Source: Escherichia coli
GTDB taxonomy: Bacteria > Pseudomonadota > Gammaproteobacteria > Enterobacterales > Enterobacteriaceae
DNA length: 64,000 nucleotides
Reading direction: 5' to 3' (one strand)
Assembly: GCF_050920415.1 (NCBI RefSeq)
Contig: NZ_CP169309.1
The translations under genes and the position numbers were made by a program. Positions 10,570 through 28,998 of this stretch are shown piece after piece. The notes under the pieces are model-generated. The model did no database searches and was not told where the DNA came from. It saw only the letters and a list, made by a program, of their open reading frames with translations. The first letter of the stretch is position 1. Every line of letters starts with the position of its first letter.

Positions 10570-12948
10570 ATGTCCAACAATGGCTCGTCACCGCTGGTGC
10601 TTTGGTATAACCAACTCGGCATGAATGATGTAGACAGGGTTGGGGGCAAAAATGCCTCCCTGGGTGAAATGATTACTAACCTTTCCGGAATGGGTGTTTC
10701 CGTTCCGAATGGTTTCGCCACAACCGCCGACGCGTTTAACCAGTTTCTGGACCAAAGCGGCGTAAACCAGCGCATTTATGAACTGCTGGATAAAACGGAT
10801 ATTGACGATGTTACCCAGCTTGCGAAAGCGGGCGCGCAAATCCGCCAGTGGATTATCGACACTCCCTTCCAGCCTGAGCTGGAAAACGCCATCCGCGAAG
10901 CCTATGCACAGCTTTCCGCCGATGACGAAAACGCCTCTTTTGCGGTGCGTTCCTCCGCTACTGCAGAAGATATGCCGGACGCTTCCTTTGCCGGTCAGCA
11001 GGAAACTTTCCTCAACGTTCAGGGGTTTGACGCCGTTCTCGTGGCAGTGAAACATGTATTTGCTTCTCTGTTTAACGATCGCGCCATCTCTTATCGTGTG
11101 CACCAGGGTTACGATCACCGTGGCGTGGCGCTCTCCGCCGGTGTTCAGCGGATGGTGCGCTCCGACCTCGCATCTTCTGGCGTGATGTTCTCCATTGATA
11201 CCGAATCCGGCTTTGACCAGGTGGTGTTTATCACTTCCGCATGGGGCCTTGGTGAAATGGTCGTGCAGGGTGCGGTTAACCCGGATGAGTTTTACGTGCA
11301 CAAACCGACACTGGCGGCGAATCGCCCGGCTATCGTGCGCCGCACCATGGGGTCAAAAAAAATCCGCATGGTTTACGCGCCGACCCAGGAGCACGGCAAG
11401 CAGGTTAAAATCGAAGACGTACCGCAGGAACAGCGTGACATCTTCTCGCTGACCAACGAAGAAGTGCAGGAACTGGCAAAACAGGCCGTACAAATTGAGA
11501 AACACTACGGTCGCCCAATGGATATTGAGTGGGCGAAAGATGGCCACACCGGCAAACTGTTCATTGTGCAGGCGCGTCCGGAAACCGTGCGCTCACGCGG
11601 TCAGGTCATGGAGCGTTATACGTTGCATTCACAGGGTAAGATTATCGCCGAAGGCCGTGCTATCGGTCATCGCATCGGCGCGGGTCCGGTGAAAGTCATC
11701 CATGACATCAGCGAAATGAACCGCATCGAACCTGGTGATGTGCTGGTTACTGACATGACCGACCCGGATTGGGAACCGATCATGAAGAAAGCATCGGCCA
11801 TCGTCACCAACCGTGGCGGTCGTACCTGTCACGCGGCGATTATCGCTCGTGAACTGGGCATTCCGGCGGTAGTGGGCTGTGGTGATGCAACAGAACGGAT
11901 GAAAGACGGTGAGAACGTCACTGTTTCTTGTGCAGAGGGTGATACCGGTTACGTCTATGCTGAGTTGCTGGAATTTAGCGTGAAAAGCTCCAGCGTAGAA
12001 ACGATGCCGGATCTGCCGTTGAAAGTGATGATGAACGTCGGTAACCCGGACCGTGCTTTCGATTTCGCCTGCCTGCCGAACGAAGGCGTGGGCCTTGCGC
12101 GTCTGGAATTTATCATCAACCGTATGATTGGCGTCCACCCACGCGCACTGCTTGAGTTTGACGATCAGGAACCGCAGTTGCAAAACGAAATCCGCGAGAT
12201 GATGAAAGGTTTTGATTCTCCGCGTGAGTTTTACGTTGGTCGTCTGACTGAAGGGATCGCGACGTTGGGTGCTGCGTTTTATCCGAAGCGTGTCATTGTC
12301 CGTCTCTCTGATTTTAAATCGAACGAATACGCCAACCTGGTCGGTGGTGAACGTTACGAGCCAGATGAAGAGAACCCAATGCTCGGCTTCCGTGGCGCGG
12401 GACGTTATGTTTCCGACAGCTTCCGCGACTGCTTCGCACTGGAGTGTGAAGCGGTGAAACGTGTGCGCAACGACATGGGACTGACCAACGTTGAGATCAT
12501 GATCCCGTTCGTGCGTACCGTAGATCAGGCGAAAGCGGTGGTTGAAGAACTGGCGCGCCAGGGGCTGAAACGTGGTGAAAACGGGCTGAAGATCATCATG
12601 ATGTGTGAAATTCCGTCCAACGCCTTACTGGCAGAGCAGTTTCTCGAATATTTCGACGGCTTCTCAATTGGCTCAAACGATATGACGCAGCTTGCGCTTG
12701 GTCTGGACCGAGACTCCGGCGTGGTGTCTGAACTGTTCGATGAGCGCAACGATGCAGTGAAAGCACTGCTGTCGATGGCGATTCGTGCCGCGAAGAAGCA
12801 GGGCAAATATGTCGGGATTTGCGGTCAGGGTCCGTCCGACCATGAAGACTTTGCCGCCTGGCTGATGGAAGAGGGGATCGATAGCTTGTCCCTGAACCCG
12901 GACACTGTGGTACAAACCTGGTTAAGCCTGGCTGAACTGAAGAAATAA
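10570..12948 (+). CDS. ppsA: Phosphoenolpyruvate synthase
   Basis: 792 aa, N-terminus [34 protein letters not shown] matches PpsA. Confidence 0.97.
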
Positions 12949-12956
12949 AATAAATA

Positions 12957-12982
12957 CCCGGCGGCGTTTTGTCGCCGGGTTT
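12957..12982 (+). terminator. Hairpin terminator between convergent ppsA and fadK
   Basis: cccggcggcg-tttt-gtcgccggg stem-loop followed by ttta. Confidence 0.6.
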
Positions 12983-13004
12983 ACGTGATCCCCGAGTATG
13001 AAAC

Positions 13005-14705
13005 TTATTCAACCTCTTCACAGACATCCTGAATTAATCGCCGCATAATATCTTTCCTTAACAAAAACTTTTGTATTTTACCTGATGCAGTACGTGGTAA
13101 TTTCTCTGTTACCACAATATGTTCAGGATATTTATATTTTGCTACCCGTTTACGGCTAAAAAAAGCCACTATGTCTTCCAGCGATATTGAATGATGCGGC
13201 GCTTTCAGCACGACATAAGCGCATGAACGTTCACCTAAACGTTCATCGGGCATCGCAACCACACAGGCATCATGAATTTTAGGATGCTGTAATAAAATAT
13301 CTTCCACTTCACGACTGCTAATATTTTCCCCGCCGCGGACAATAATATCTTTCTTGCGCCCGGTTATTTTTATATAGCCAGCTTCATCCATTCGGCAGAG
13401 ATCGCCGCTGTAATACCAGCCTTCTTCATCCAGCGCACGGGCGGTTAATTCCGGTTCATCAAAATAACCCATAAACACATTGGGACCACGCGAAGCCTCT
13501 TCACCTACACAACCAGGCGGTAAGGTCTTGCGTGCATCATCGACCACTTTAATCTCTACGCCTGCGGCAGCGTAACCATCGGTGTTCATAAAGCGCGACA
13601 AAGGATCGTCGAGATTTACCACCGCATGCGGCGAACTTTCTGTGGAACCATAAACACTTAATAATTTAATGCCGCGTTGTTGGCATTCACGCGCCACCTT
13701 TTTGGGGATCGTGGTGCCGCCGCAAAGAAAGAAGCGTAGTGCAGAAAGGTCTGCGGGCTGTTTCTCCAGTAAATTCAAAAGGTCATAGACAAACGGTGTT
13801 GCGCCGAGCATGCAGGTACACCGTTGCTGCTCAAGTAGCAAAAGACAGGCTTCCGGGGTAAAGATATCTAACAACACGCTGCGAGCGCCAATTAAAAATG
13901 GTGCCGTTACGCCATGCAGAAAGCCCGTTGCGTGACCGAGTGGTGCAGGCATCATAAAGACATCCTGCCAGGTCAGGTTCAGCCGCGCGCAATATGCCCG
14001 CTCACTGGCGAGAATATTGTTATGCGTTAGCATCACGCCCTTTGGCTGCCCCTCAGTTCCGGAGGTAAATAGCACTGCTGCTAATTCATCGCCGTGGGTC
14101 GTTATCGCCGTAGTCAGTGGGGTATTGTCGGCGAGAATCTGACTTAATGAGAGGGACGAGGTGGCGGGAGCCAGTTTGTCCACGCCGACAATTTGTTGTA
14201 GTTGTGGAAGCTGATTTTGCAGCGGCAGGATTAAATCTACCGGACGCGTTTGTTTAAACAACGTCGGTGCAAAGAACATTTTTGCCTGACACTTATTGAG
14301 CACCCACACCAGTTCTGCTTCCCGCCAGGAAGGTAACAGCGGCACGGAAACCGCACCGGTTTTCAGGCAGGCAAGATAGATAACGGTAAATTCACACCAG
14401 CCTGGCAGTTGAAATGCGATGCGATCCCCTGATTCAATACCCTTCGCCAGCATCCAGTTTGCCAGACAGCTCGCGGCATGATCGAGCTCGCTATAGGTGT
14501 ACGATGCACCATGATTATCGACCACGGCAATTTTATCTGGCATCGCACGAGCGGTCTGCTGCCAGTAATCGGCCAGCGAAGCATCGCCCCATAATCCTTG
14601 CTGACGATACGCCGCACGACGTTGTTCGTTAAACGTTAATGTCACTTTCATTTTGGACTCTCGAAACAGAACATCAGGCCCGAGATACGGGCCTGTGGGA
14701 TGCAT
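13005..14705 (-). CDS. fadK: Short-chain acyl-CoA synthetase (anaerobic)
   Basis: 566-aa ORF with AMP-binding motifs (TSGTEGQPKG); ATG at 14705; an alternative start at MKVTLTF 17 codons in cannot be excluded. Confidence 0.88.
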   Translation of the reverse strand: MHPTGPYLGPDVLFRESKMKVTLTFNEQRRAAYRQQGLWGDASLADYWQQTARAMPDKIAVVDNHGASYTYSELDHAASCLANWMLAKGIESGDRIAFQLPGWCEFTVIYLACLKTGAVSVPLLPSWREAELVWVLNKCQAKMFFAPTLFKQTRPVDLILPLQNQLPQLQQIVGVDKLAPATSSLSLSQILADNTPLTTAITTHGDELAAVLFTSGTEGQPKGVMLTHNNILASERAYCARLNLTWQDVFMMPAPLGHATGFLHGVTAPFLIGARSVLLDIFTPEACLLLLEQQRCTCMLGATPFVYDLLNLLEKQPADLSALRFFLCGGTTIPKKVARECQQRGIKLLSVYGSTESSPHAVVNLDDPLSRFMNTDGYAAAGVEIKVVDDARKTLPPGCVGEEASRGPNVFMGYFDEPELTARALDEEGWYYSGDLCRMDEAGYIKITGRKKDIIVRGGENISSREVEDILLQHPKIHDACVVAMPDERLGERSCAYVVLKAPHHSISLEDIVAFFSRKRVAKYKYPEHIVVTEKLPRTASGKIQKFLLRKDIMRRLIQDVCEEVE

Positions 14706-14707
14706 GA

Positions 14708-15001
14708 TTAGCCGTAGCGAAAATCAATACCGAAGGTGCCTGCGGGATATTGCCACTGTTCGAGAATCGTATTGCCACACAACACCCGACAGGTGCCGCA
14801 TTCGAGACAACCGGCGGAATCAAAATGTATGTTTCCTGCGTCATCCTGCTTATACAGTCCGGCAGGGCAAGCTTTCATTAATTTACGGAATTCATTGATA
14901 TCGGGATTTGCCGCCAGAATGATATGCGGGTGACCCTCATCAACATGGAATTTATTGACACCTAATTTGATGTCGACGTTAACCGTAGCGTTCTGGCTCA
15001 T
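14708..15001 (-). CDS. ydiT: Ferredoxin-like protein (FixX family)
   Basis: 97 aa with Cys cluster CLECGTCRVLC; start overlaps ydiS stop (ATGA). Confidence 0.9.
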   Translation of the reverse strand: MSQNATVNVDIKLGVNKFHVDEGHPHIILAANPDINEFRKLMKACPAGLYKQDDAGNIHFDSAGCLECGTCRVLCGNTILEQWQYPAGTFGIDFRYG

Positions 15002-16287
15002 AGCGCGGTTGCTCCCTTAATGCCATCTTTCAGCAAGTTGATCAGCCCAATTTTCTTCGCGTGTCCCATGATCATTTTGCGTACCGGCTGGTTTGGTTTG
15101 CCGTCGATGGTGAACATATCGTTCATGATGTCGGCGACCATTCGTGGGTATTGGCTAAACAGGCGCGGGTTTTCCATCAGCGCCGGGATCTTGCGGAAAT
15201 GCTGCATATCGCGCATAACACAACTTTGTTCCAGCTCACGTTTGTATTGCGCCAGGCTGCTGGCGGAGAAGTCAGCGCGTTCTTTAGCGGCAATCACTGT
15301 TGTGGCGGCAGCCTGGGCCGATGCGATGGCTAAATCCATTCCGCGAACCGTAAAGCCCAGATTGAGGCAGAAACCTGCGGCATCACCGACGATCATCACG
15401 CCCTCATTAACCAGCTGCGGCACCATCGCCAGACCGCCTTCCGGTACCATGTGCGCGGAATATTCAAGCAGTTTGCCGCCGCTAATCAGTGAGCGAATGG
15501 CGGGGTGTTGTTTAAAATCTTCCAGCATTTGCGGCACGCTTTTTTTTGCATGGGCGATATCACCCAATCCACAAACCAGCCCCAACGATACGGAATCCTT
15601 GTTGGTATAGAGGAATCCGCCGCCCATCAGGCCGTCAGAAGGGGAACCGGCAAACAGCCAGGCGGCACCTTCCTCGCCCATAACATTAAAGCGATCGTTG
15701 ATTTGCTCTGGTGTAAGACCAATAATCTCTTTAACACCAACTGCGTAATGATGCGGATCGGAAGCGGGAACCATTCCCAGCGAGCGGCCAAGCATTGAGT
15801 TAACGCCATCAGCCAGAATCACCACATTCGCTTCAAGAACATCATCCCCGGCCTGAACGCCAGTGACCTTATTTCCTTCACGAACCAGCGCATCGACACG
15901 AACGCCCGGGATAAACTGCGCGCCAGCCTGTTCGGCTTGTTCCATCAACCACGGGTCCAGACGATTACGCAATACGGTATAAGACGCGTGTTGCGGAACA
16001 TCTGGTTGCTCGCGGTGAAAATCGAGGGTAACGGCACTCTCTTCGGTTAAGAAGGAGATTTTCTCGCGTGTGACCTTGCGTTCTACCGGCGCTGATGCTG
16101 CAAAGCCTGGAATAATCGCTTCAAGTGTGTGGGCATAAAGACGCCCGCCGGTCATGTTTTTACATCCGGCACTGTCGCCGCGTTCTATCACCAGGACATC
16201 CAGCCCGGCTCGCGCCATGACCAGTGCGGCAACGCTACCGGCAACGCCCGCACCGACCACAATGGCATCAAATTTGTCATCCGACAT
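14998..16287 (-). CDS. ydiS: ETF-quinone oxidoreductase-like flavoprotein (FixC family)
   Basis: 429 aa, N-terminal FAD fold motif DAIVVGAGVAGS. Confidence 0.92.
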   Translation of the reverse strand: MSDDKFDAIVVGAGVAGSVAALVMARAGLDVLVIERGDSAGCKNMTGGRLYAHTLEAIIPGFAASAPVERKVTREKISFLTEESAVTLDFHREQPDVPQHASYTVLRNRLDPWLMEQAEQAGAQFIPGVRVDALVREGNKVTGVQAGDDVLEANVVILADGVNSMLGRSLGMVPASDPHHYAVGVKEIIGLTPEQINDRFNVMGEEGAAWLFAGSPSDGLMGGGFLYTNKDSVSLGLVCGLGDIAHAKKSVPQMLEDFKQHPAIRSLISGGKLLEYSAHMVPEGGLAMVPQLVNEGVMIVGDAAGFCLNLGFTVRGMDLAIASAQAAATTVIAAKERADFSASSLAQYKRELEQSCVMRDMQHFRKIPALMENPRLFSQYPRMVADIMNDMFTIDGKPNQPVRKMIMGHAKKIGLINLLKDGIKGATAL

Positions 16288-16342
16288 GCGTTATGCTCCC
16301 TTCCCGCTGCATTTACAGCGGGAGATGTGGTTGAAAGGGGAA

Positions 16343-17281
16343 TTAGCGGCTCAACTGGCTAATCAGGGCAGGGACGACTTTGTAAATATCGCCCACCAGG
16401 CCGTAGTCGGCATAATTGAAGATTGGCGCGTTTTTATCTTTATTGATGGCGACAATCACTTTTGCGCCGTTGCCGCCAACCATATGTTGGATCTGCCCGG
16501 AGATCCCCAGCGTCAGGTAGAGATCGGATTTCAGCAACACGCCGGAGACACCGATATAACGTTCACGCTCCATCCAGTTCTCGCCTTCGGCAATTGGACG
16601 TGAACAGCCGACTTCAGCATTCAGCACCGCCGCCAGTTCGTGGACCATTTTCAGGTCATCCTGCGCCGCCAGACCGCGACCGACGCCAACCACACGTTTT
16701 GCTTTGCTCAGGTCCACGCTGCTTGCCGCTTTCGCTCGGCGTTCGCGACAGAGAATTTCATGACGCGGGGCAACATAAGGTACCGTTTCTGTCGGGCACT
16801 GATGAGAGATATCACTGGTGCACGGTTCCTGAACACCGGGTGCAAGGGTAATGATCGCCAGCGGGCTGTTGATCTTTTCCTGAGCGAACGCTAACCCGCC
16901 ATACATCCGGTGTTCGGCGCAAATGTGACCATCGACAATATCCACCGCCGTGGCATCGTTCACCAGCGCCGCATTCAGTTGCACACTTAACCGTGCTGCC
17001 AGAGCTTTACCACGTTTCGTCGCGGCCAGCAGCAACATAGCGGGGTGTTTATCTTTCAGCAGGGCAGCAATGCTTTCGGCGTAATTTTCAGTACGTTGCA
17101 GCGCGTCGTTTTGCTCAAGAACATAAATACATTTTGGCCCATAAGGCATAACTGCCTGCGCCTGGTCGGTATTTTGTACAATGGCATACACCTGTTGGCC
17201 CCATTGCTGCGCGCCGCCAAACAGTTCAGCATAACGTTCAGGATTATCGCTAAAGACCCAGACGCTGTTTAATTGACTCAT
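16343..17281 (-). CDS. ydiR: Electron transfer flavoprotein alpha subunit
   Basis: 312 aa, ETF-alpha/FixB-like sequence. Confidence 0.92.
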   Translation of the reverse strand: MSQLNSVWVFSDNPERYAELFGGAQQWGQQVYAIVQNTDQAQAVMPYGPKCIYVLEQNDALQRTENYAESIAALLKDKHPAMLLLAATKRGKALAARLSVQLNAALVNDATAVDIVDGHICAEHRMYGGLAFAQEKINSPLAIITLAPGVQEPCTSDISHQCPTETVPYVAPRHEILCRERRAKAASSVDLSKAKRVVGVGRGLAAQDDLKMVHELAAVLNAEVGCSRPIAEGENWMERERYIGVSGVLLKSDLYLTLGISGQIQHMVGGNGAKVIVAINKDKNAPIFNYADYGLVGDIYKVVPALISQLSR

Positions 17282-17300
17282 CGTTTCTTCTCCGTAGGCT

Positions 17301-18065
17301 TCAGTTCAGGGCTTTCTTCAGATGTTCCGCCAGCTCGGCAATGGCCTCCGGCGAATCGTTATCGAGAATGATGTGCTTACGTTCTGTTTGCGGCGGTACG
17401 CGAATGCCGGTCAGTTCAGCAAGTGGCGTGCTCTGGCTCCAGCCAATATCACTTGCCTGCCACTGATTTACCGGTTTTTTACCCGCGCCGAGAATGGCTT
17501 TCATCGAAGGAATGCGTGGCATGTTAATATCGGAGGTGACGCAGAGCACGGCTGGAACAGAGAGCTCAATAACTTCAACATCATCTTCAAGCGTGCGTTC
17601 AATCACCAGTGTATTGCCCTGACGCTGAATAGCACTCACTGCATTAATCACCGGAAGTTGCAGAATTTCTCCGACCAGCAAGCCAACCTGCTGGGCATAA
17701 AGGTCGCCGGAACCTTCACCAAAGATCAGTAAATCGAAGCCGATCTTTTCAACTGCTGCCGCCAGCGCCTTTGCGGTATCGAGAGGCAGTGCATGTTCAA
17801 GTTGCGCATCCTGCACCAAATACAGGCTATGCGGCCCGCGGGATAGCACGTCTTTGCGCACTTTCGAGTTCTGCAACAATGAGCCGCCAATGGTCAGCGC
17901 GGCTATCTCATCGTCATCTGTTGCAATCTGGCTTGCAGCTTCAATGGCATTGAGATCGAACTGGCTGATTTTGGCGTCGGCATTGTCGAAATTCAGGGTA
18001 TATTCTGGAGTGACAACAATGTCCTGTTCTTCAGGCACCAGCTTAAAGCAGGTTATTATTTTCAT
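17301..18065 (-). CDS. ydiQ: Electron transfer flavoprotein beta subunit
   Basis: 254 aa from ATG at 18065 (MKIITCFKLVPEE) with RBS caggag upstream; the ORF-track 33-codon 5' extension is rejected. Confidence 0.88.
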   Translation of the reverse strand: MKIITCFKLVPEEQDIVVTPEYTLNFDNADAKISQFDLNAIEAASQIATDDDEIAALTIGGSLLQNSKVRKDVLSRGPHSLYLVQDAQLEHALPLDTAKALAAAVEKIGFDLLIFGEGSGDLYAQQVGLLVGEILQLPVINAVSAIQRQGNTLVIERTLEDDVEVIELSVPAVLCVTSDINMPRIPSMKAILGAGKKPVNQWQASDIGWSQSTPLAELTGIRVPPQTERKHIILDNDSPEAIAELAEHLKKALN

Positions 18066-18180
18066 GATTTCTCCTGTGAGTCGCATACGGAACCATCTCC
18101 GATGGAAGGTAAAAATGGCCTGAAAATAGTGTGCGATAGCGGTGCGGGGTTTTCGACGGAGCAAGCTGTTTTCCTTGCCA

Positions 18181-18264
18181 ACAATCTTGCAAAAAAAATG
18201 CGATCGCTAAAACAAAAGTGCAATTTGCGGCAATGTTGTTATTCCATGACCGTACAATCTTGCA
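18181..18264 (+). promoter_or_regulatory. Divergent ydiQ/ydiP promoter region with direct 11-mer repeat ACAATCTTGCA (copies at 18181-18191 and 18254-18264)
   Basis: Identical 11-mer twice, 73 bp apart, in a 216-bp intergenic region. Confidence 0.4.
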
Positions 18265-18380
18265 TTCAGTGTAAATAATCTTGTTTAGCTCTCGCTAAAC
18301 GCGGTTGTATAACCGCAATACACGCCGTATTTTATCCGGCATATATTGTTTTTGCTTGCTCATGGAATAGGGAGGTTGTC

Positions 18381-19292
18381 ATGTATCAACGCTGTTTTGA
18401 TAACGCCAGCGAAACGCTGTTTGTCGCCGGTAAAACGCCACGGCTTTCACGTTTTGCATTTAGCGATGATCCAAAATGGGAGTCCGGACATCACGTTCAT
18501 GACAATGAAACCGAGTTGATTTACGTCAAGAAAGGGGTAGCAAGGTTTACCATCGATTCTTCGTTATATGTCGCGCATGCCGATGACATTGTGGTGATAG
18601 AACGTGGCAGGTTGCATGCGGTGGCCTCTGACGTTAACGATCCAGCAACGACGTGTACCTGTGCGCTGTACGGCTTTCAGTTTCAGGGGACTGAGGAAAA
18701 TCAGCTACTGCAACCGCATTCTTGCCCGGTCATTGCCGCAGGGCAGGGAAAAGAAGTCATTAAAACCTTATTTAATGAGCTAAGTGTGATTTTGCCGCAA
18801 AGTAAAAATAGCCAAACATCTTCGTTATGGGACGCATTTGCCTATACGTTAGTAATTCTTTACTACGAAAACTTTAAAAATGCTTATCGTTCGGAGCAGG
18901 GATATATTAAAAAAGATGTTCTGATAAAAGATATTCTTTTCTATCTGAATAATAATTATCGCGAAAAAATCACTTTAGAGCAGTTATCGAAAAAATTTCG
19001 TGCCAGCGTCAGTTATATCTGCCATGAATTTACCAAAGAGTATCGTATTTCCCCTATTAACTATGTTATTCAACGGCGTATGACGGAAGCGAAATGGTCA
19101 CTCACTAATACTGAATTATCACAGGCAGAGATCTCCTGGCGTGTGGGTTATGAAAATGTCGATCACTTTGCCAAACTGTTTTTGCGCCATGTCGGCTGTT
19201 CGCCCAGCGATTACCGCAGGCAATTTAAAAACTGTTTTGCGGAACAAGAAATCTTATCTGAATTTCCTCAACCGGTAAGTCTTGCCGGATAA
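18381..19292 (+). CDS. ydiP: AraC/XylS family transcriptional regulator
   Basis: 303 aa, cupin-like N-terminus and C-terminal AraC-type HTH region. Confidence 0.9.
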   Translation: MYQRCFDNASETLFVAGKTPRLSRFAFSDDPKWESGHHVHDNETELIYVKKGVARFTIDSSLYVAHADDIVVIERGRLHAVASDVNDPATTCTCALYGFQFQGTEENQLLQPHSCPVIAAGQGKEVIKTLFNELSVILPQSKNSQTSSLWDAFAYTLVILYYENFKNAYRSEQGYIKKDVLIKDILFYLNNNYREKITLEQLSKKFRASVSYICHEFTKEYRISPINYVIQRRMTEAKWSLTNTELSQAEISWRVGYENVDHFAKLFLRHVGCSPSDYRRQFKNCFAEQEILSEFPQPVSLAG

Positions 19293-19334
19293 ATCTGGCG
19301 GCGCAGTTTGTTAAGAAGCTGCGCCGCCTGCAGA

Positions 19335-20486
19335 TTATTTGTTCTGATAATCTTTCAGGATCTGCCGACCCGCTACGTAAATCATAATTTCGTCTGTACC
19401 GCCGCCGATACGTTCACAACGGACATCACGCCAGAAGCGAGAGACGCGCGCCTCATCGGTATAGCCCAGACCGCCCATGATTTGAATCGCATCATCAATG
19501 ACTTCCATTGCGGTACGTGCGCAGTACAGTTTTGCCAGCGCCGCGCTGGTGCGCAGTGACTGATGCTGATCGGCTTGCCATGCCACTTTCAACACCATGT
19601 TGCGCATGTTGTCGATCTTAATCGCCATCAGCGCCAGTTTTTCCTGAATCATCTGGTTATGACCAATGGGCTTACCAAAAGCGATACGTTGGTTGGCATA
19701 GCGGGCGGCATCTTCGAATGCGCATTCGGCAAAGCCGGTGCTGCGCGCGGCGTTGATCAGGCGCTCCATCTCAAAGTTGTACATCACATTGAGGAAACCC
19801 ATTCCTTCTTCGCCCACCATGTCGCTCTCTTCAACTTCCACGTTGTTGAGATAGACTTCGCAGGTGCTGAGCATATGCCAGCCGATTTTATGCAGCGGGT
19901 TAATCTTAATGCCGGGCTTACTGGAGTCGACCCACCACAGGGTGAAGGCTTTTTTGGGATCTTTCGGTTCTGGATCGCGCGCCAGCACCAGCATATACGG
20001 GTACTCTTTCGCGCCGGTAATAAAGGTTTTCTGGCCGTTGATGTAAACCTTGCCATTTTTACGCGTGTAAGTGGTAGTAGCACTGTTATTGTCTGAGCCT
20101 GCGCCTGGTTCCGTCAACGCCAGGGCATAGGCGGGATCACCCGTTTCCAGGGTGCTCTCTGCCGTTTTACGTAGCTGCTCAGCAGAACCGAAACGGCGCA
20201 TGCTGTGAATACATTGACCGTTGGTAATCAAAAATGCCGGAGCACCGCATTTTGACACTTCCATCAGCGCCAGCATTTGGGTGACGTAATCCGCAGGGAT
20301 ACCACCAAATTCTTCCGGCACGCCAAGCATTGAAATACCGTTATCCGCCAGTGCCCGCATAAACTCACGCGGGTATGTCCCGTTTTGATCGCAGGTGCGG
20401 AAATACTCTTCCGGAAAGTTGGTCGTAATCAACTCGCGAATACTGGCCAGCAGCAGTTCTTGTTCTTCAGTTAAAGAAAAATCCAT
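19335..20486 (-). CDS. ydiO: Acyl-CoA dehydrogenase (CaiA/butyryl-CoA dehydrogenase-like)
   Basis: 383 aa from ATG 20486 (MDFSLTEEQELL); acyl-CoA dehydrogenase-family sequence. Confidence 0.9.
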   Translation of the reverse strand: MDFSLTEEQELLLASIRELITTNFPEEYFRTCDQNGTYPREFMRALADNGISMLGVPEEFGGIPADYVTQMLALMEVSKCGAPAFLITNGQCIHSMRRFGSAEQLRKTAESTLETGDPAYALALTEPGAGSDNNSATTTYTRKNGKVYINGQKTFITGAKEYPYMLVLARDPEPKDPKKAFTLWWVDSSKPGIKINPLHKIGWHMLSTCEVYLNNVEVEESDMVGEEGMGFLNVMYNFEMERLINAARSTGFAECAFEDAARYANQRIAFGKPIGHNQMIQEKLALMAIKIDNMRNMVLKVAWQADQHQSLRTSAALAKLYCARTAMEVIDDAIQIMGGLGYTDEARVSRFWRDVRCERIGGGTDEIMIYVAGRQILKDYQNK

Positions 20487-20499
20487 CATTATACTCCTG

Positions 20500-22095
20500 T
20501 TAATGAGCCGCTTCAGGCAGGACAAAACCCATCGCCGCATCGATAAATAATCTTTCGTCCATCAGTTTGAGTTCTGGCGAAATCACTGGGGTGAAATCCA
20601 TTTTGTCGAGAATATCTTTTTGTAAATCGACGCCAGGAGCGATTTCGATTAAATGCAGGCCGTCTTCTTTTAGCGTGAATACGGCGCGCTCAGTGATATA
20701 ACGAACATCCAGTCCTCGCTCGAGAGCGATTTTTCCGCTGAAAGTAATTTCCGGTAGTTCCTGAATAAATTTCTTCACCCGTCCTTCCTGGACGATATTT
20801 AATTTGCCGTCGGCAATTTCTGTTTTTAAACTGCCCGCAGTTAATGTGCCGCAGAAAATGATTTTCTTCGAAGTGGCACTGATATCAATAAATCCACCGG
20901 TGCCCATGATTTTACCATTGAATTTATGCACGCCGACGTTACCGTGCTGGTCGACTTCAGCAAAACTCAAATAACAAACATCCAGACCGCCACCGTGATA
21001 AAAATCAAACTGGGACGTCATATCCAGAATGGCACGGGTATTCACGTTCGCGCCAAAGGCGATCCCCTGTGAAGTAATACCGCCAATTGGGCCTGTTTCT
21101 ACCGTCAGAATAAAGTCATCAGCACAACCTTCTTCCCGGGCGACCAGGCCAATGCCGTCAGCAATACCGACGCCGACATTCCCCACCGCGCCTTTGCGCA
21201 TTTCGAATAATGCGCGCCGTGCAACTAATTTACGTTGGTTTAGGGGTAGGCTAAGTTTGGTGCTGTCATCAAGGGTGAAGTCACCAGAAATAAAGCGGTT
21301 AACCGGCGCACCGCCATACAGTTGGGTTTGATCCGGATCGACTACCACAATATCCACCAGATAACCCGGAATACGGACAGATTTAGGATGCAGCGTGGCT
21401 TTCTTAACCATCTTCTGCACCTGCATCATCACAATACCGCCGTTATTGTGCACCGCCTGAGCAATAACCAATGCGTCGAGATACATCACCTCATCTTCAA
21501 AGGTGGCGTAGCCTTCGCTGTCGCAGGTGGTGGCGCGAATAAAGGCGATATCCGGCGCAATCGCTTTGTAATAGAGATATTCTTTGTTATCAAACTCGAC
21601 CAGTTTAATCAGGTCTTCTTTAGTGACTTCATTCAGTTTGCCGCCTTGCTGGCGTGGATCGACAAATGTTCCGATGCCAATATCACTAATAATACCAGGC
21701 TGGTGGGCTGCGGCGGCGCGTAAGGTTTGTGTAAGTACACCTTGTGGATAGTTATAAGCAATAATTTTATTTTGTTCTGCGAGATCAGAAATACGCGGCG
21801 ATTGTCCCCAGTGACCGCATAATGCCCATTTCACCAGACCTTCTTGTGCCAGCGGACTAATACCACGGTCGGCGCGATCGCCAAGCCCTGTTGGACTAAT
21901 AATCGATAAATTACGTGGTGTTTGAGTCTGTTTATATTTATCAGCAAGAGCAGTAATTAACGTGGTGGCTTCCAGAATACCGCCGCCAGCGCCTAACACA
22001 CAAAGTGTTGCTTCGTCGGGAATATAATTCACCGCTTCCTGTGCCGACAGGACCGGCACTCGTCCATTAATACGAGGTGGTTTTACAGGTTTCAT
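20500..22095 (-). CDS. ydiF: Fused alpha/beta acetate/3-ketoacid CoA-transferase
   Basis: 531 aa, N-terminus MKPVKPPRINGRVPVLSAQEAV matches YdiF. Confidence 0.92.
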   Translation of the reverse strand: MKPVKPPRINGRVPVLSAQEAVNYIPDEATLCVLGAGGGILEATTLITALADKYKQTQTPRNLSIISPTGLGDRADRGISPLAQEGLVKWALCGHWGQSPRISDLAEQNKIIAYNYPQGVLTQTLRAAAAHQPGIISDIGIGTFVDPRQQGGKLNEVTKEDLIKLVEFDNKEYLYYKAIAPDIAFIRATTCDSEGYATFEDEVMYLDALVIAQAVHNNGGIVMMQVQKMVKKATLHPKSVRIPGYLVDIVVVDPDQTQLYGGAPVNRFISGDFTLDDSTKLSLPLNQRKLVARRALFEMRKGAVGNVGVGIADGIGLVAREEGCADDFILTVETGPIGGITSQGIAFGANVNTRAILDMTSQFDFYHGGGLDVCYLSFAEVDQHGNVGVHKFNGKIMGTGGFIDISATSKKIIFCGTLTAGSLKTEIADGKLNIVQEGRVKKFIQELPEITFSGKIALERGLDVRYITERAVFTLKEDGLHLIEIAPGVDLQKDILDKMDFTPVISPELKLMDERLFIDAAMGFVLPEAAH

Positions 22096-22239
22096 TGTTA
22101 ATTCCTGATTCAGGTGTAATTTTCCCTACGCCAGATGGAGAATTAGAGCGCAGAGACTCACGAAATATTTTTATTAAATACGGTTGAATATATTTTTTTA
22201 GTTCGGCGGGGGAGGGTATTCCCGCCGAAATATTATTGC

Positions 22240-22998
22240 TTATGCCTGATGTAAAATAGTTAATACCGTGCGCAAATCATTTACCGAGATTTGCCCTGGC
22301 GCAGAGGCTTTTTTTACCGCACCAAAAGTTGCCGCCGACCCAAATACTTCACCAGCCAGACGAGAAATTACGCCAGTTTTTGCCATCGACATCGTGATGA
22401 TTGGACGATCGGCATACTGCTCCTGCATCTCCAGGGTCGCGGCAAGCAACGTCAGCACATCGCTGGTACTTTGCGGCATCAGCGCAATCTTAGGAATATC
22501 GGCGTCGAAGGACTGCATTTTACGCAGACGGGCAATGATTTCTTCGGCTTCCGGCGTTTTATGGAAGTCATGGTTGGACATGACAACTTTCACATCATGC
22601 GCGTGGGCGTAGGCGACGGTTTCTTTAACTTGATCATCACCGGTAAATAACTCCAGATCGATCATATCAACCAGGCCGCTGTCGATGGCTGCACGATTGA
22701 GTGCAATATAAGCCTCGGTGGAAATCGCCTGCTCGCCGCCTTCTTTGGCACTGCGGAAGGTAAACAGCAGCGGTTTTTCTGGCATGGTTTCACGGAGAAT
22801 TTTTGCCGCTGCCATGACAGACTCCACATTGGATAGGTCGGCATAGTGGTCAACACGCCATTCCAGAATATCAAAGTCCGCTTCACGATAGGCGAGAGCT
22901 TCGGATTTCACGCTGGCGATATCTTTCGCCATCAGCGAGACGATGATTTTAGGTGCGCCCGTACCAATGACGAGATCTTTTACAGTTACGGTTTTCAT
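22240..22998 (-). CDS. aroD: 3-dehydroquinate dehydratase type I
   Basis: 252 aa, N-terminus [26 protein letters not shown] matches AroD. Confidence 0.95.
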
Positions 22999-23028
22999 TT
23001 TTTACCCTTTCTGCACGCGGTCAGCCTG

Positions 23029-23895
23029 TCAGGCACCGAACCCCATGACCTGTTTAACATATTCCAGAGGGAAATCTTTGCCAGTCCATAACGTGAACTG
23101 TTCAGCCCCTTGCCACAACAACATGCCGTATCCATCAATCGTTTTGCAACCAGCTTGTTGCGCCTGCTGCAATAACTTCGTCATATGCGGGTTATACACG
23201 CATTCAGTGACCAGAAGTCCCGGATGTAACAGACTGATATCATTAACCAATGATTCATTCTCAAGGGGTTTCATGCCCACTTTTGTGCCATTGGTTAAAA
23301 TGTCGGCGGAAGCCAGGGCTTCAGCAAAGGCTTGCTGATCGGCGAGATCGGTAACCGTGACGACACAATCGGTGTTTTCGTTAACCCGCTGCGCGAAGGC
23401 GAGGGCTTTATCGAAGAACTCATCCCGACGGTTAAAGAGTTTAATTTCTTTTAAACCTTCAATTGCCCCCTGCGCGCCAATTGCCGTTGAGGCACCTCCG
23501 GCCCCTAACAGCACCATCGTTTTGCCTTTGATATCAAAACCGCTCTCTTTAATGGCGCGAATATGGCCCGTGCCGTCGGTGTTATAGCCACGCAGATAGC
23601 CATCATCATTTACGATGGTGTTGATGGCACCCACCAGTTTGGCTGCTGGCGTTAATTCATCAACATATTCACACGCCAGTTGTTTGTTCGGCATTGATAC
23701 ACCAGTTCCGCGCATTTTGAGGGCTTTTAATCCTTCAATTGCTCCGGGAAAACTATCGTTATCCACTTCAAAGGCCATATAGGTAAATGGCAATCCCGCT
23801 TTTTCTAAGGCTTTGTTCTGCATTTCGGGCGATAAACTGTGGCGGATGGGATAGGCCATCAACCCAATCAATTCGTATTTTGCGGTAACATCCAT
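23029..23895 (-). CDS. ydiB: Quinate/shikimate dehydrogenase (NAD(P)-dependent, AroE paralogue)
   Basis: 288 aa, N-terminus [23 protein letters not shown] matches YdiB. Confidence 0.95.
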
Positions 23896-23906
23896 AATTA
23901 ACTCCT

Positions 23907-25172
23907 TTAACCTCTATGCTTAATTGTGTTTAACCGGGTGCTAAATTTATGCTCGCCAAACCGCACATCATTTTCAGGAATAATGAAAACGCGGTAATAG
24001 CGGATAAAAACAATAATTGCGGTAATCAGGGCCAGCAGCGCGAAAGTAAAATCGAGAACAATGATATATTGCAGGCCGATGTTCGACAGATAACCGGTAA
24101 TCAGCGGAATAACAAAGTTAGCCAGTCCACCCATCATCATATATATACTGGTGACTTTGGCTTTGCTTTTGGGGAAAAACTCTGACATGACCGAAACGCC
24201 GAGCTGTAAAATGCCGCCAGCTGCTGAGAAACCGATAACAAAGGCTCCGGCATTACACACCAGTGGAGAAGGGTACAGGTAGATAATGGCAGCTGTTATT
24301 GTTGCCAGTGCAGAGTTAAATACATTAGCCCAGATGGGCCGGACCATTTTTTTCAGCAGTGCGGCAAAAATAAAGACACAGACCAGCGAACCCATACTGT
24401 AATAAGAGATGGTTTTTAATGCCTCAGCTTCTGACATACCAGCAAAAGCCATCGCATATTTGGGCATCCACACCACAATCACATAAAAGGTCGAGAATGC
24501 GGCTACACCGAACAGTACCGATGAAACACCTTCCAGCCAGACTAACGGTTTGCTGTTCATTTGCGGTAATTCATTAGCTACGCTGGCGTCCACCAACTGG
24601 CTGGGGAATTTGCTTTTCAACAGCATCAGCGTGATCAGTACAAACAGAATACCCGGAATAATCAGCCCATAGCCGTACCAGATATTATTGAGCAACATAT
24701 AGCTCACCAGCATTGGGTAGAACATTTGCCCGAATGACACCATCGCTTTAACCAGTATGACTGCCGAACCAGAGGCTTTCGGAAAGCATTCCATGAGCGC
24801 AGGGTAGCCACCCGTATCCAGCGCTGAGTTAGCGATACCTACGCACACTGCCAGACAGTAGGCGAGAGTTAAATTCGGGCAAGCGGGAATACCAAAGAAG
24901 AATAGCAGATACATTATTACTGCCATTAATATCACCGCCCGACGACCAAACTTATCGGAGATCACACCGAAGAATAAAATACTGATCAATCGCCCCAAAC
25001 CGATACCGGAAATTAAATAGGCAATGCCCGCGTTGTCAGTGGAAAACTTTTCTGCCAGAGATGACATATTTTGGGCAAGCGTAATAACACTAATGCCGTG
25101 CAGAAAATAGCTGAAGTAAATACAAAGAACAGCCAGGATAAATGGCGTGCTGAAAGCCTTATTTTGAGACAT
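23907..25172 (-). CDS. ydiN: MFS transporter
   Basis: 421 aa from ATG at 25172 (MSQNKAF); the ORF-track start at 25178 is GTG; multi-pass hydrophobic protein. Confidence 0.88.
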
Positions 25173-25398
25173 TTTCACAGCTCCTTGCTGAAAGATTATT
25201 TCGTTACCGTACGTATTGTTCTCCGACGGTTTACATAATTACTATACTGAAGATGATTTTCCCTGGGTACATGGCATAAAGTTTATGTTTCCAGGAATAT
25301 TGCATGTCATAGTTTGTTTTTGATCGCGATTTTCCTTAGTTAGCGCAGAAAGAGTTATTTATCCGTAAGATCTTGCATGACCTGAAAAGAATATTGCA

Positions 25399-26613
25399 TT
25401 ACCCACCCGGAGCGACATTTTCCTTTAGCGAGTTATGCTGCGTTTCTTTGCGGCTGCGTAAGCCGATAAACAGTGCCAGTAAAAAACCGATGGCAGCGAT
25501 GGCGGTATCGAACCACATAATATCGGCAATACTTCTTTGGGACAGATGAGCCGTAATCAACGGAATAGTAAAGGTCGCAATACTGCCCGCACTGTAATAG
25601 ATCCCTGTAGCTTTACCTTTAGCGTAGGGGAAACGTTCAGCCATTAACGTCAGGCCAATTTGCACAACACCTCCAGCAGAGGTAAAACCAATGACAAAAG
25701 CAAATATTATCACCACATAAAATGTGGGATGCAGGCAGACGGTAAACAGAGCAATAAATGAGATAAAGGTGTACAGCATCAGTAATGTTGTTGGGCGAAC
25801 GATATTACGAATGAGTGGAGCGGTAATAAATACACAAAGCAGCGAACCCACGGTGTAGATACTGAGTAGTTTGATCGACATAGTGTATGACATGCCTGCA
25901 ACAAATTGTCCGTACTGTGCCAGCCACTGGCTAACCAGATAAAAGGTTGCCATTGAGATATAGCCATATAAGGTATAACTGGCTAAATCGATAATTGAAC
26001 AGCGATGTTCCGTAGAGTTGGTGGCTTTCTCTATGACAGGTAAGCGACGACCCGGATGGGGTGGGAACGTACAACGGTATAAAAACAGAGCATTAATAAA
26101 CATAATGCCTGCGGCAATCATAAAGGACCAGCCGAACCACAGTTCAGCCCACACTAACAGGCTGATGATTAGCGGTAATAAAAATTGCCCGCTGGAAACA
26201 AATGCTTTAATTAAAATATTAGCTGTACCCGGTGAACGTGGAAAAGCTTCCATCAAACTGGGATAGGTGCCTGCATCGAGAAAACTGTTTGCCATTCCCG
26301 CCAGAAAGCCCAAACCATAAGCGATAATGATGTTATTGGTGTGCAGGATGCCAAAAAAGAAGGCCATATAGCAGCACATCCCGAGCATGATAAAAGGGCG
26401 GCGACCAAAGCGATCGGATAATAATCCTGCAAAAAGCAAGACACTTAATCGACCAATACCCAGCGATGAGATAACTATTGAGACGCCTGCGGCATTAGTC
26501 TGCCAAAGCGTCTCCAGCGAGGCCATATTCAGGCTCATCAAAATGACGCCCATACCATGCACCAGGTAATTAAAATACAACCCAAGTGCGGTAGGGAAAT
26601 AGGGATTTTTCAT
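25399..26613 (-). CDS. ydiM: MFS transporter
   Basis: 404 aa, ATG at 26613, about 12 hydrophobic segments. Confidence 0.88.
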   Translation of the reverse strand: MKNPYFPTALGLYFNYLVHGMGVILMSLNMASLETLWQTNAAGVSIVISSLGIGRLSVLLFAGLLSDRFGRRPFIMLGMCCYMAFFFGILHTNNIIIAYGLGFLAGMANSFLDAGTYPSLMEAFPRSPGTANILIKAFVSSGQFLLPLIISLLVWAELWFGWSFMIAAGIMFINALFLYRCTFPPHPGRRLPVIEKATNSTEHRCSIIDLASYTLYGYISMATFYLVSQWLAQYGQFVAGMSYTMSIKLLSIYTVGSLLCVFITAPLIRNIVRPTTLLMLYTFISFIALFTVCLHPTFYVVIIFAFVIGFTSAGGVVQIGLTLMAERFPYAKGKATGIYYSAGSIATFTIPLITAHLSQRSIADIMWFDTAIAAIGFLLALFIGLRSRKETQHNSLKENVAPGG

Positions 26614-26711
26614 AGGTTCTACTTAGCAAAGGTGCTTTAAAAAGTGAAGCGATGTTGTCTCAGCATCCGTTCATTATTGTTGTAACAACGACAATTCCTT
26701 TCTTTGGAAAA

Positions 26712-27068
26712 TTAACAAAGGCGCTCCAGATCGTGTGCATATAATTCAGCGGCTACCGATTGATAGATCTTCCAGTCAATAAAATTGCCATCAGGGTAGA
26801 CACGTTGAAACGCGGTTAAGTCAGGGAAAAAACGCATGGTGTTGTTGCCGATGCGGTTATTTATTTTCTCTATGATGGCATGAAGATGTTTTTTTCGTTG
26901 CTGTCGCATAGCCAACAGTTGCTCGACCACACGATCAGGAATGGCGCATTTGCCATTTTCCCACTGACGCCAGCTTTCACTGTCACCGGTCTGGGCAATC
27001 CAGGTCGCGCATTCATCAATAGTCATGGCAAAAATATGGCGAAGTGCCTGGAGTTCATAAGCGTTCAT
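26712..27068 (-). CDS. ydiL: DUF1870-type small protein YdiL
   Basis: 118 aa from in-frame ATG (MNAYELQALRHIF); the ORF-track start at 27095 is TTG. Confidence 0.75.
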   Translation of the reverse strand: MNAYELQALRHIFAMTIDECATWIAQTGDSESWRQWENGKCAIPDRVVEQLLAMRQQRKKHLHAIIEKINNRIGNNTMRFFPDLTAFQRVYPDGNFIDWKIYQSVAAELYAHDLERLC

Positions 27069-27206
27069 CGTGTAATGGCTGCATGAAATAAACAATAAAA
27101 TATAAATAACATTATCAGCCTGCCGACGGCTTGAAGAGAGTCACAGTATCTTGTGCAACATTATTGGAAAGAGTGAGGGGGCGAGGTAGCGAAGCGGAAA
27201 AATGTT

Positions 27207-27312
27207 AAAAAAAAGCCCATCGTGGGAGATGGGCAAAGACTACACACAGCAATTCGTTGTTTCACTCAGGGGATTTCCATGCTTATAAATCAATATGTTG
27301 ATTTATAACCGT
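27207..27312 (-). ncRNA. rprA: RprA small regulatory RNA (Hfq-dependent activator of rpoS translation)
   Basis: Reverse complement reads ACGGTTATAAATCAACATATTGATTTATAAGCATGGAAATCCCCTGAGTGAAACAACGAATTGCTGTGTGTAGTCTTTGCCCATCTCCCACGATGGGCTTTTTTTT, recognised as RprA with its intrinsic terminator. Confidence 0.88.
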
Positions 27313-27497
27313 GAGCTAATAGTAGGCATACGGACTTTTTGCGTCGATCAGATTCGTCTCATTAGTTTAAAAACTGTAAAGAATTTGCGACAGGTACTAC
27401 CAGCTGAAAGGCGGTAAGCAGGAAAATATAGTGAAGAGCAAGCAAATATCAATTAGCGGTGGTTAACAATCAGGCGGCAGAACCGCCTGATGAGAAA

Positions 27498-28610: not shown

Positions 28611-28998
28611 AACTACTTTTCACCTTTTTTGTGCGTCAAATCGTCGACGCGACGTGAACACGCGAAACTCACCTGCATAATGATGAGCAATTTCAGCGGT
28701 TTTTAACAGGCCGATTCTGCCCTTAATTCTGATGGGCGTGTTAGAAAAAAATGTGGTACAACAACTCAGGCAACACGCAAACGATTTACTCGTCGTATTT
28801 CAAATTGCATGTGCTGCGGCTACGTTCGTTCACCCCAGTCACTTACTTTTGTAAGCTCCTGGAGTTCACTCGCTTGCCGCCTTCCTGCAACTCGAAATCC
28901 ATAGAGTAAACAAACATCACCTTTCAGTGCGCTATTGCAGCCGCCTGAAAGAATAGTGTATCGACCTACATCACAGACCGCAGGAAAGGGTCAATATA

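Follow-up and report, generated by a model that had tools for sequence, protein, structure and literature searches.

A Cai/Fix-like gene cluster of Escherichia coli conserved with quinate and shikimate genes: a possible CoA-dependent enoate reduction pathway

The closest described relatives of the system considered here are the caiTABCDE and fixABCX genes of Escherichia coli. These combine an acyl-CoA dehydrogenase (ACAD; CoA, coenzyme A) of the CaiA type, a FixAB-type electron-transferring flavoprotein (ETF) with the motif DLYAQQ, the flavoprotein FixC and the one-cluster ferredoxin FixX with an AMP-forming ligase, a CoA-transferase, a transporter and a substrate-specific dehydratase step. 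The same parts are found at the ydi locus of a 64,000-nucleotide stretch of E. coli DNA (the window; assembly GCF_050920415.1, contig NZ_CP169309.1), where positions 13005-22095 hold the genes from fadK to ydiF and the adjoining positions hold aroD, ydiB, ydiN and ydiM. We propose, at a probability of about one half, that these genes specify a Cai/Fix-like, CoA-dependent pathway for the reduction of the enoate group of quinate and shikimate. Similar odds attach to the view that 13005-22095 forms the downstream two-thirds of a single conserved regulon, composed of ydiM/ydiN-ydiB-aroD-ydiF-ydiO, ydiP and ydiQRST-fadK. The two E. coli systems differ in several respects. The CoA-transferase of the ydi locus, YdiF, belongs to class I, whereas CaiB belongs to class III; AroD acts as a dehydratase on the free acid, whereas CaiD is a non-homologous crotonase that acts on the CoA ester; the regulator is the AraC-type protein YdiP in place of CaiF; and the proposed substrate is a different one. 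The genes are listed below by their positions in the window; those from fadK to ydiF are supported by both open reading frames and RefSeq annotation.

fadK (ydiD), 13005-14651, minus strand: acyl-CoA ligase, 548 amino acids from the RefSeq start
ydiT, 14708-15001, minus strand: FixX-like ferredoxin
ydiS, 14998-16287, minus strand: FixC-like flavoprotein
ydiR, 16343-17281, minus strand: ETF large (alpha) subunit
ydiQ, 17301-18065, minus strand: ETF small (beta) subunit
ydiP, 18381-19292, plus strand: AraC-family regulator
ydiO, 19335-20486, minus strand: ACAD
ydiF, 20500-22095, minus strand: CoA-transferase
aroD, 22240-22998, minus strand: type I 3-dehydroquinate dehydratase (by annotation), outside 13005-22095 and within the conserved unit
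ydiB, 23029-23895, minus strand: NAD-type quinate/shikimate dehydrogenase (by annotation), within the conserved unit
ydiN, 23907-25172, minus strand: major facilitator superfamily (MFS) transporter, within the conserved unit
ydiM, 25399-26613, minus strand: second MFS transporter, 36-38% identical to YdiN

Every protein encoded in 13005-22095 scored above the cut-off of its own NCBIfam equivalog or subfamily model. The initial annotation of YdiQRST as FixABCX-like is borne out by identities of 45-63% to E. coli FixABCX, and its account of the set as an acyl-CoA redox module adjoining an acyl-CoA dehydrogenase holds as well. YdiQ, the FixA-like small subunit (NF008998, 496 bits), is 54% identical to FixA, and YdiR, the FixB-like large subunit (NF008884, 691 bits), is 45% identical to FixB. 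The pair carries the ETF and ETF_alpha domains, with the electron-transferring FAD (ET-FAD) domain in the large subunit, and aligns with 5ol2_A and 6fah_B, the YdiR ET-FAD domain aligning with 5ol2_A. YdiS, 62% identical to FixC, is the flavoprotein of an ETF:quinone oxidoreductase (ETF:QO) and scored 242 bits against Thermotoga maritima FixC (7koe_C) and 86 bits against the pig enzyme ETF-QO (2gmh); YdiT, 63% identical to FixX, is a ferredoxin that also matches 7koe_D.

YdiO (NF008997, 785 bits) had been described as butyryl-CoA-dehydrogenase-like. This label is imprecise, as its nearest characterised relative is the crotonobetainyl-CoA reductase CaiA (48% identity). Because its score of 450 bits on the CaiA model lies below the cut-off of 540, YdiO is a paralog and not an ortholog of CaiA. 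In YdiO and all its relatives, a glycine replaces the glutamate of the YEGT motif found in medium- and short-chain acyl-CoA dehydrogenases, and a glutamate is kept in a conserved E-x-E-R motif, presumably resembling the placement of the catalytic base in isovaleryl-CoA dehydrogenase. YdiF is a fused class I CoA-transferase that scored 1190 bits and is the protein of PDB entries 2AHU, 2AHV and 2AHW ("putative enzyme ydiF"); the Pfam domain CoA_trans is present in YdiF of all orthologous loci. FadK (NF004758, 1077 bits) is an AMP-forming acyl-CoA ligase, 29% identical to CaiC. YdiP has the AraC/XylS architecture, with AraC_binding (3.4e-10), Cupin_2 (7.6e-11) and HTH_18 (1.6e-20) domains in Pfam. 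The locus thus encodes a CaiA-clade ACAD together with a FixABCX-clade ETF and ETF:QO, and the ligase FadK, the transferase YdiF, the transporters YdiN and YdiM and the dehydratase AroD are conserved together with these in five gene orders.

Three other groups of described systems share part of this plan. The acrylate pathway of Clostridium propionicum also pairs a YdiF-like fused class I transferase (Pct) with enoyl-CoA reduction by an ACAD-ETF complex. Unlike the ydi locus it lacks a FixCX-type link to the membrane and the quinones, and its acryloyl-CoA reductase takes electrons from NADH; the ydi proteins score far below the cut-offs of its models (YdiO on AcrC 233 bits, YdiR on AcrA 144, YdiQ on AcrB 75). 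The mitochondrial and bacterial ACAD-ETF-ETF:QO chain offers the same three-tier path between acyl-CoA or enoyl-CoA and quinone, and YdiS matches its 2gmh structure. In the ydi locus, however, the ETF is neither canonical (DDDxNQ, AMP-binding) nor of group 2, FixC and a separate FixX replace the single ETF-QO, and the proposed direction is reversed. Finally, the CoA pathways of alicyclic acids (AliA/AliB for cyclohexanecarboxylate, and shikimate-derived cyclohexanecarbonyl-CoA in ansatrienin producers) combine CoA activation of a cyclohexane or cyclohexene carboxylate with ACAD redox chemistry at the C1=C2 bond. The runner-up family of FadK is cyclohexanecarboxylate-CoA ligase (427 bits, below the cut-off of 792), and YdiO reaches 185 and 140 bits on models of the cyclohexane-carbonyl-CoA dehydrogenase type (below cut-offs of 650 and 575). 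We count these below-cut-off matches to cyclohexane-type families as support, although the scores are well below the thresholds and the alicyclic-acid pathways, unlike the ydi system, are catabolic or biosynthetic and not linked to FixCX.

The association with quinate and shikimate genes was examined with YdiO as the query in one genome per species. This gave 45 loci, onto which the proteins of the window were then mapped, from Escherichia, Citrobacter, Kosakonia, Yersinia, Serratia, Dickeya, Brenneria, Symbiopectobacterium and Sutterella. In every YdiO locus long enough to show it, ydiN-ydiB-aroD-ydiF-ydiO form an unbroken co-directional block. Enterobacterales carry this block followed by ydiP and ydiQRST-fadK, and Sutterella (Betaproteobacteria) has the same ten genes in two divergent operons, ligase-T-S-R-Q and N-B-D-F-O. 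Three further gene orders come from uncultured, lower-GC contigs (42-44% GC): MFS-YdiF-YdiO-ETFb-ETFa-shikimate dehydrogenase-3-dehydroquinase I-FixC-FixX, with an adjoining divergent AraC gene, on metagenome contig L058; MFS-YdiF-YdiO-ETFb-ETFa-3-dehydroquinase I-FixC-FixX-ligase on L057; and AraC-MFS-MFS-YdiF-YdiO-ETFb-ETFa-shikimate dehydrogenase-3-dehydroquinase I on L059. On L057 and L058, genes of the shikimate pathway lie inside the ETF/FixCX operon, with the ETF genes on one side and FixC on the other, a placement for which chance proximity of the housekeeping gene aroD does not account.

The dehydrogenases of the clusters are of the YdiB rather than the AroE type (76-77% identity on L058 and L059), and the Sutterella YdiB ortholog scored 520 bits on the quinate/shikimate dehydrogenase model NF009390 (cut-off 349). 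Both Sutterella and L057 retain the acyl-CoA ligase. Homologs of YdiP at 45-51% identity accompany the cluster in Sutterella and on L058, the Sutterella homolog (51%) lying together with a second MFS gene 6 kb from the cluster; a second MFS gene is found near the cluster on L058 and L059 as well. The cluster had originally been taken to end at ydiF. Its genes from 13005 to 22095 stand as described, but aroD-ydiB-ydiN(-ydiM) belong to the same conserved unit as ydiF-fadK and are apparently co-regulated with them. Because the ydi cluster always occurs with quinate and shikimate genes, its most likely role would be the reduction of a shikimate-derived CoA ester in the manner of the carnitine pathway.

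More distant homologs of YdiO, at 61-68% identity, keep different company. These sister modules, found in Desulfovibrio desulfuricans (L054), E. albertii (L056) and a metagenome contig from JGI (L061), have no shikimate genes; they contain a type III CoA-transferase, an MFS gene, one or more ACADs, an ETF of the DLYAQQ type, FixCX, a protein of the metallo-beta-lactamase fold and a ligase. Which accessory genes are present thus follows the ACAD clade, as would be expected if they define the substrate. The cai/fix genes, the ydi genes and the sister modules suggest a wider modular family. One YdiO homolog, 74% identical, stands alone as an orphan without informative context, and one short contig was uninformative. 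On L059 (15197-17125), the place of FixCX downstream is taken by genes for an ApbA/ketopantoate-reductase-like protein, a MaoC dehydratase and a glyoxalase-fold protein, a hint that the CoA ester is processed further there. Identities between E. coli and Yersinia are 92-93% for YdiO, 89% for YdiF, 85% for YdiB, 68% for YdiR and 65% for YdiP, and evolutionary rates are very uneven within the ydi block (loci L005 to L047 compared with 13005-25172 of the window).

The ydiQ and ydiN promoter regions share a cis-element. Phylogenetic footprinting placed three sites of the form (A/G)CAAGATT(A/G)T, all in the same orientation, upstream of ydiQ, and three sites of the form ATGCAA(T/G)AT, again in one orientation, lie upstream of ydiN:

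Q1, 18275-18284, minus strand: ydiQ-side site
Q2, 18254-18263, minus strand: ydiQ-side site, 21 bp from Q1
Q3, 18181-18190, minus strand: ydiQ-side site, 73 bp from Q2 and 125 nucleotides before the ydiQ ATG
N1, 25388-25399, minus strand: ydiN-side site
N2, 25367-25378, minus strand: ydiN-side site, 21 bp from N1
N3, 25293-25304, minus strand: ydiN-side site, 74 bp from N2 and 131 nucleotides before the ydiN ATG

In the whole window, pairs of GCAAnAT spaced by 21 bp occur twice only, 5' of ydiQ and 5' of ydiN. A first-order Markov simulation gave an expectation of 0.04 such pairs per window, with two or more in none of 300 runs. All Enterobacterales genera examined keep the 21-bp pair between ydiP and ydiQ, and it recurs beside the cluster in Sutterella and on L058. 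Paired sites 21 bp apart beside a divergent AraC-family gene are typical of the AraC family. The shared three-site architecture implies a single regulator for both promoters, probably YdiP, with the GCAAnAT sites as its putative operators.

The spacer between aroD and ydiF (22096-22239) is poorly conserved and contains no GCAAnAT element, so that ydiF-ydiO may be read through from upstream. In Citrobacter and Kosakonia (L016, L018) this spacer holds two copies of GAATATTC about 16 bp apart; at the same place E. coli has degenerate AT-rich remnants only. Consensus scans for FNR, CRP and FadR stayed at chance level in the window and returned no site in the three promoter regions: no FadR box with at most three mismatches was found in 18066-18380, 22096-22239 or 25173-25398, and no CRP box in the ydiQ, ydiF and ydiN promoter regions. 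One FNR-like palindrome lies nearby, within a coding sequence:

18516-18529: TTGATTTACGTCAA, inside ydiP codons 46-50 (LIYVK), about 457 nucleotides upstream of the ydiQ ATG

This palindrome coincides with the target listed as ydiP/ydiQ in a chromatin immunoprecipitation (ChIP-chip) study of FNR, a place without a known promoter (PMC1802558).

The initial annotation had also called the ETF possibly bifurcating, and this suggestion was not upheld. Of five ETF groups, group 2 alone is regarded as bifurcating, according to a secondary source. In bifurcating ETFs (n=216) the small subunit carries a zipper D-G-D-T-A-Q whose threonine is 100% conserved, and in canonical ETFs (n=449) the zipper reads D-D-D-x-N-Q (PMC8958531). 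We compared YdiQ, using HMMER and MAFFT, with the bifurcating proteins CarD, C. difficile EtfB and LctB and with canonical human ETFB, testing for the group 2 pattern D-G-(D/E)-T-(A/G)-(Q/H), which contacts the pyrophosphate of the bifurcating FAD (Bf-FAD). The aligned zippers are DGDTAQ in CarD, C. difficile EtfB and LctB, DDDCNQ in human ETFB and DLYAQQ in YdiQ; the extended motif G(E/D)GSxDLYAQQ does not vary among YdiQ itself, its Sutterella and metagenome orthologs, E. coli FixA and two sister clades. At the position of G-(G/A)-A-D-T-x-A-T, YdiQ has E-H-A-L-P-L-D-T, with proline in place of the first threonine, and at its N-terminus it has KLVPEEQD in place of the bifurcating KQVPD. YdiT contains five cysteines, four of them conserved in the family (CP...CxxCxxC), and is predicted to be a FixX-like ferredoxin with one [4Fe-4S] cluster; EtfX of the bifurcating T. 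maritima 7KOE complex has two cluster motifs, compared with one in the YdiT/FixX relatives. With the zipper, the GADT threonine, KQVPD and an EtfX-type second motif all absent, the ydi ETF lacks the sequence features of group 2.

We envisage the following route, pieced together by analogy with the Cai/Fix system and with Pct and acryloyl-CoA reductase. Quinate or shikimate would be taken up by YdiN and/or YdiM. YdiB and AroD, by their known activities, interconvert quinate, 3-dehydroquinate, 3-dehydroshikimate and shikimate. Shikimate, an alpha,beta-unsaturated carboxylate, might be converted to its CoA thioester by YdiF with product-CoA as the donor, and FadK would prime the CoA cycle with ATP, by analogy with CaiB and CaiC. 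YdiO, judged by its paralogy with CaiA, could then reduce the C1=C2 bond of the enoyl-CoA (shikimoyl-CoA), with electrons passing from the menaquinol pool through YdiS and YdiT, with its one [4Fe-4S] cluster, to the ETF YdiQR and on to YdiO. Dihydroshikimate would be freed by CoA transfer and exported. YdiP, in turn, would sense the substrate and, by way of the GCAAnAT triple sites common to both, activate the ydiN and ydiQ promoters. The enoyl-CoA/acyl-CoA couple lies near -10 mV and menaquinone near -74 mV; since enoyl-CoA reduction by menaquinol is thus exergonic, bifurcation is unnecessary.

A related physiology has been described. According to a preprint, S. wadsworthensis and Eggerthella lenta both use shikimate as a respiratory electron acceptor, reducing its enoate group to give hydroshikimate. 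Growth stimulation in S. wadsworthensis depends on formate, and in E. lenta shikimate induces a flavin reductase; for Sutterella the text consulted names no enzyme (bioRxiv 10.1101/2022.12.26.521950). The E. lenta shikimate reductase is a FAD_binding_2 protein resembling urocanate and fumarate reductases, and it would share with the ydi system the net reaction and the role of a respiratory electron sink in the gut; unlike the ydi system, it belongs to an unrelated family and acts on the free acid with neither CoA activation nor an ETF. It is possible, and we advance it tentatively, that Enterobacterales and Sutterella likewise respire dietary quinate and shikimate anaerobically under a single YdiP-controlled regulon, reducing shikimoyl-CoA to dihydroshikimoyl-CoA with electrons from quinol.

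Several points weigh against a role in shikimate reduction. Support from transcriptomes of shikimate strains is circumstantial: ydiB, aroD and ydiN are upregulated in shikimate-accumulating E. coli, and ydiQ, ydiR, ydiS and ydiT are among the most strongly differentially expressed genes in a shikimate-production culture, where the direction of change is not clear from the tables. In the literature we found no experiment, biochemical or genetic, in which the E. coli Ydi proteins were tried on shikimate or quinate, and no open-access paper that ties ydi genes to shikimate or quinate reduction. The linkage in Enterobacterales could be partly historical, as aroD is also the housekeeping dehydroquinase of biosynthesis. 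S. wadsworthensis encodes dozens of flavin reductases. Two of these, both FAD_binding_2 proteins, adjoin its cluster: at positions 13462-19060 of its locus (L053, CP068055.1), they and a two-component system separate the ydi-like genes from the YdiP homolog. These reductases are alternative candidates, so that Sutterella may form hydroshikimate independently of the ydi cluster. Finally, the direction of electron flow is not readable from sequence.

Two further points count against the shikimate pathway and at the same time in favour of the published view of these genes. FadK is reported to be a short- and medium-chain acyl-CoA synthetase, most active on C6-C8 substrates, and a strain lacking both fadD and fadK no longer grows anaerobically on fatty acids (PMC9329746). 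In addition, Salmonella ydiQRSTD and ydiD are reported to be necessary for anaerobic use of butyrate, and the operon to be deleted in S. Typhi. In the published view, the cluster serves anaerobic beta-oxidation of short and medium chains: FadK would activate butyrate to octanoate, YdiO would oxidise the acyl-CoA, electrons would run through YdiQR and YdiST to quinone and on to nitrate or other acceptors, and FadIJ, encoded elsewhere, would complete the cycle. An ACAD-ETF-ETF:QO chain is also the oxidative architecture of mitochondria. We nevertheless consider this account, the chief rival of the shikimate pathway, unlikely. A 2022 review describes YdiQR as "of unknown function ... experimental evidence is lacking", notes that the fatty-acid role was proposed from proximity only, and reports that regulation of fadK by FadR or CRP is unsupported and its anaerobic induction was not reproduced (PMC9329746). 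The same review is in line with the initial view of the native substrate and inducer as not yet established, a fair assessment, though proposals have been published in the form of the FadK synthetase activity and of Salmonella butyrate use. Genes for a hydratase, dehydrogenase or thiolase were present in no version of the cluster examined (MaoC occurs on L059 only), and the three promoter regions are free of FadR and CRP boxes. The partners that are conserved are instead quinate and shikimate enzymes, the nearest characterised paralog of YdiO, CaiA, works reductively, and C4-C8 acids could be side substrates of FadK, a relative of alicyclic-acid ligases.

Alternatively, the same enzymes could run in the oxidative direction on the same substrates. 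Dihydroshikimate or related cyclohexane-carboxylates from other gut bacteria would be activated by FadK or YdiF and oxidised by YdiO to shikimoyl-CoA, with electrons passed to quinone via YdiQRST, and the shikimate made would feed aromatic amino-acid synthesis. Such a salvage route accommodates the linkage and cis-element data equally, follows the usual oxidative direction from ETF to ETF:QO and has a possible source of substrate, as gut bacteria produce hydroshikimate according to the preprint (bioRxiv 10.1101/2022.12.26.521950). It appears improbable, however: YdiB and AroD would be unnecessary if the shikimate formed went to AroK/AroL, the paralogous Cai/Fix system is reductive, and the sole physiological observation in a carrier of the cluster, that in Sutterella, is of shikimate reduction.

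Reduction of crotonyl-CoA by YdiO-YdiQRST with NADH, coupled to reduction of ferredoxin or flavodoxin in the manner of Bcd-EtfAB and CarCDE, or with reduced ferredoxin as the donor, as assumed in engineered reverse beta-oxidation, is very improbable: the folds and subunit types of YdiQRST do correspond to those of Bcd-EtfAB (5OL2), CarCDE (6FAH), LctBCD (7QH2) and EtfABCX (7KOE), with the best PDB matches of YdiQ/YdiR being CarD/CarE, C. difficile EtfAB and LctBC and those of YdiS and YdiT the bifurcating T. maritima complex, and ydiO and ydiQRST have been included in models of reverse beta-oxidation, but the motifs that contact Bf-FAD are replaced as set out above, YdiT has a single Cys4 motif, YdiR lacks an N-terminal ferredoxin domain and reduction driven by menaquinol needs no such coupling.

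What is new here, then, is evidence, drawn from sequence comparison, for a further CoA-dependent reductase system of the Cai/Fix kind with a probable hydroaromatic substrate and a shared operator. The ydi locus is a textbook case of the E. coli y-ome: it belongs to the core genome, the structure of YdiF has been studied, YdiO and YdiQRST have been borrowed for metabolic engineering, and ydiO is still cited as a poorly annotated y-gene. If the shikimate pathway holds true, about a dozen E. coli genes would gain a function and the placement of the puzzling NAD-dependent YdiB would be explained. Enterobacteriaceae would gain one more electron acceptor for anaerobic growth, plentiful in plant diets, and this could matter for the colonisation of the gut by E. 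coli and Salmonella. The old observation that gut bacteria hydrogenate quinate and shikimate would receive a genetic basis, and shikimate respiration by Sutterella a candidate enzyme system. The route through CoA esters would reach the same product as the flavin-type shikimate reductase with non-homologous enzymes, and the deletion of ydiQRSTD in Salmonella would have to be read with caution as a loss of butyrate use alone. More widely, reductases built from a CaiA-like ACAD, an ETF of the DLYAQQ type and FixCX might form a family in which accessory genes set the substrate. If the shikimate pathway is wrong, the ydi cluster stays an ordinary, already annotated locus.

The locus itself is not new; the fadK-ydiF stretch is part of the E. 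coli core genome and was annotated long ago. The DNA of 13005-22095 is 100% identical to that of E. coli NZ_CP169399.1, which carries identical RefSeq gene names, and it was matched in 5424 of 5426 complete E. coli genomes (in 5346 of them over at least 80% of its length). The FadK and Ydi proteins are 96.7-99.5% identical to those of K-12, with the gene order unchanged (b1694-b1701). The eight gene identities and the layout of two transcription units plus a regulator agree with the initial annotation, all open reading frames lying where they had been placed and the RefSeq names concurring; so does the ATGA overlap of the ydiS stop and the ydiT start, located at 14998-15001. The description of ydiP as divergent holds with respect to ydiQ, from which it is separated by a 315-nucleotide spacer, but not with respect to ydiO, towards which it is convergent (42 nucleotides). 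The remaining gaps are 56 nucleotides between ydiT and fadK, 55 between ydiR and ydiS, 19 between ydiQ and ydiR and 13 between ydiF and ydiO. The start of fadK is ambiguous: RefSeq places it at 14651 (548 amino acids), and the longest open reading frame and the K-12 annotation place it at 14705 (566 amino acids).

Scans of 12800-22400 for sigma-70 promoters and terminators gave no enrichment over shuffled sequence and served only to locate the following hairpins:

12957-12979, between convergent ppsA and fadK: bidirectional GC hairpin, CCCGGCG-N9-CGCCGGG, with T-rich tails on both strands
14675-14695, minus strand, between the ydiT stop and the RefSeq fadK ATG: GC hairpin of 8 bp with a T-rich tail
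19297-19328, between convergent ydiP and ydiO: bidirectional hairpin, GGCGGCGCAG-N12-CTGCGCCGCC
22202-22229, after aroD: GC hairpin with no U-tract in the aroD direction

The first and the third mark unit ends, the first being the probable terminator of the ydiQRST-fadK unit. The second may be an attenuator by which fadK is set off from ydiQRST; translation of fadK from the K-12 start would run through it.

In E. coli E69 (L049, CP089930.1), ppsA directly follows ydiF, the genes from ydiO to fadK being deleted. The cluster of Enterobacter sp. EA-1 (L048) looks decayed, with a split YdiR, no match to YdiS or YdiP and low identities. A study of (S)-equol-resistant E. coli reportedly names ydiS 65 times and may bear on the function of YdiS (PMC5994542). 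An Rfam scan of 12000-29000 revealed no riboswitch or leader in the long 5' regions of ydiQ and ydiN, its only match being the small RNA RprA (RF00034, 118.5 bits) at 27205-27312 on the minus strand, just past ydiL, as in K-12.

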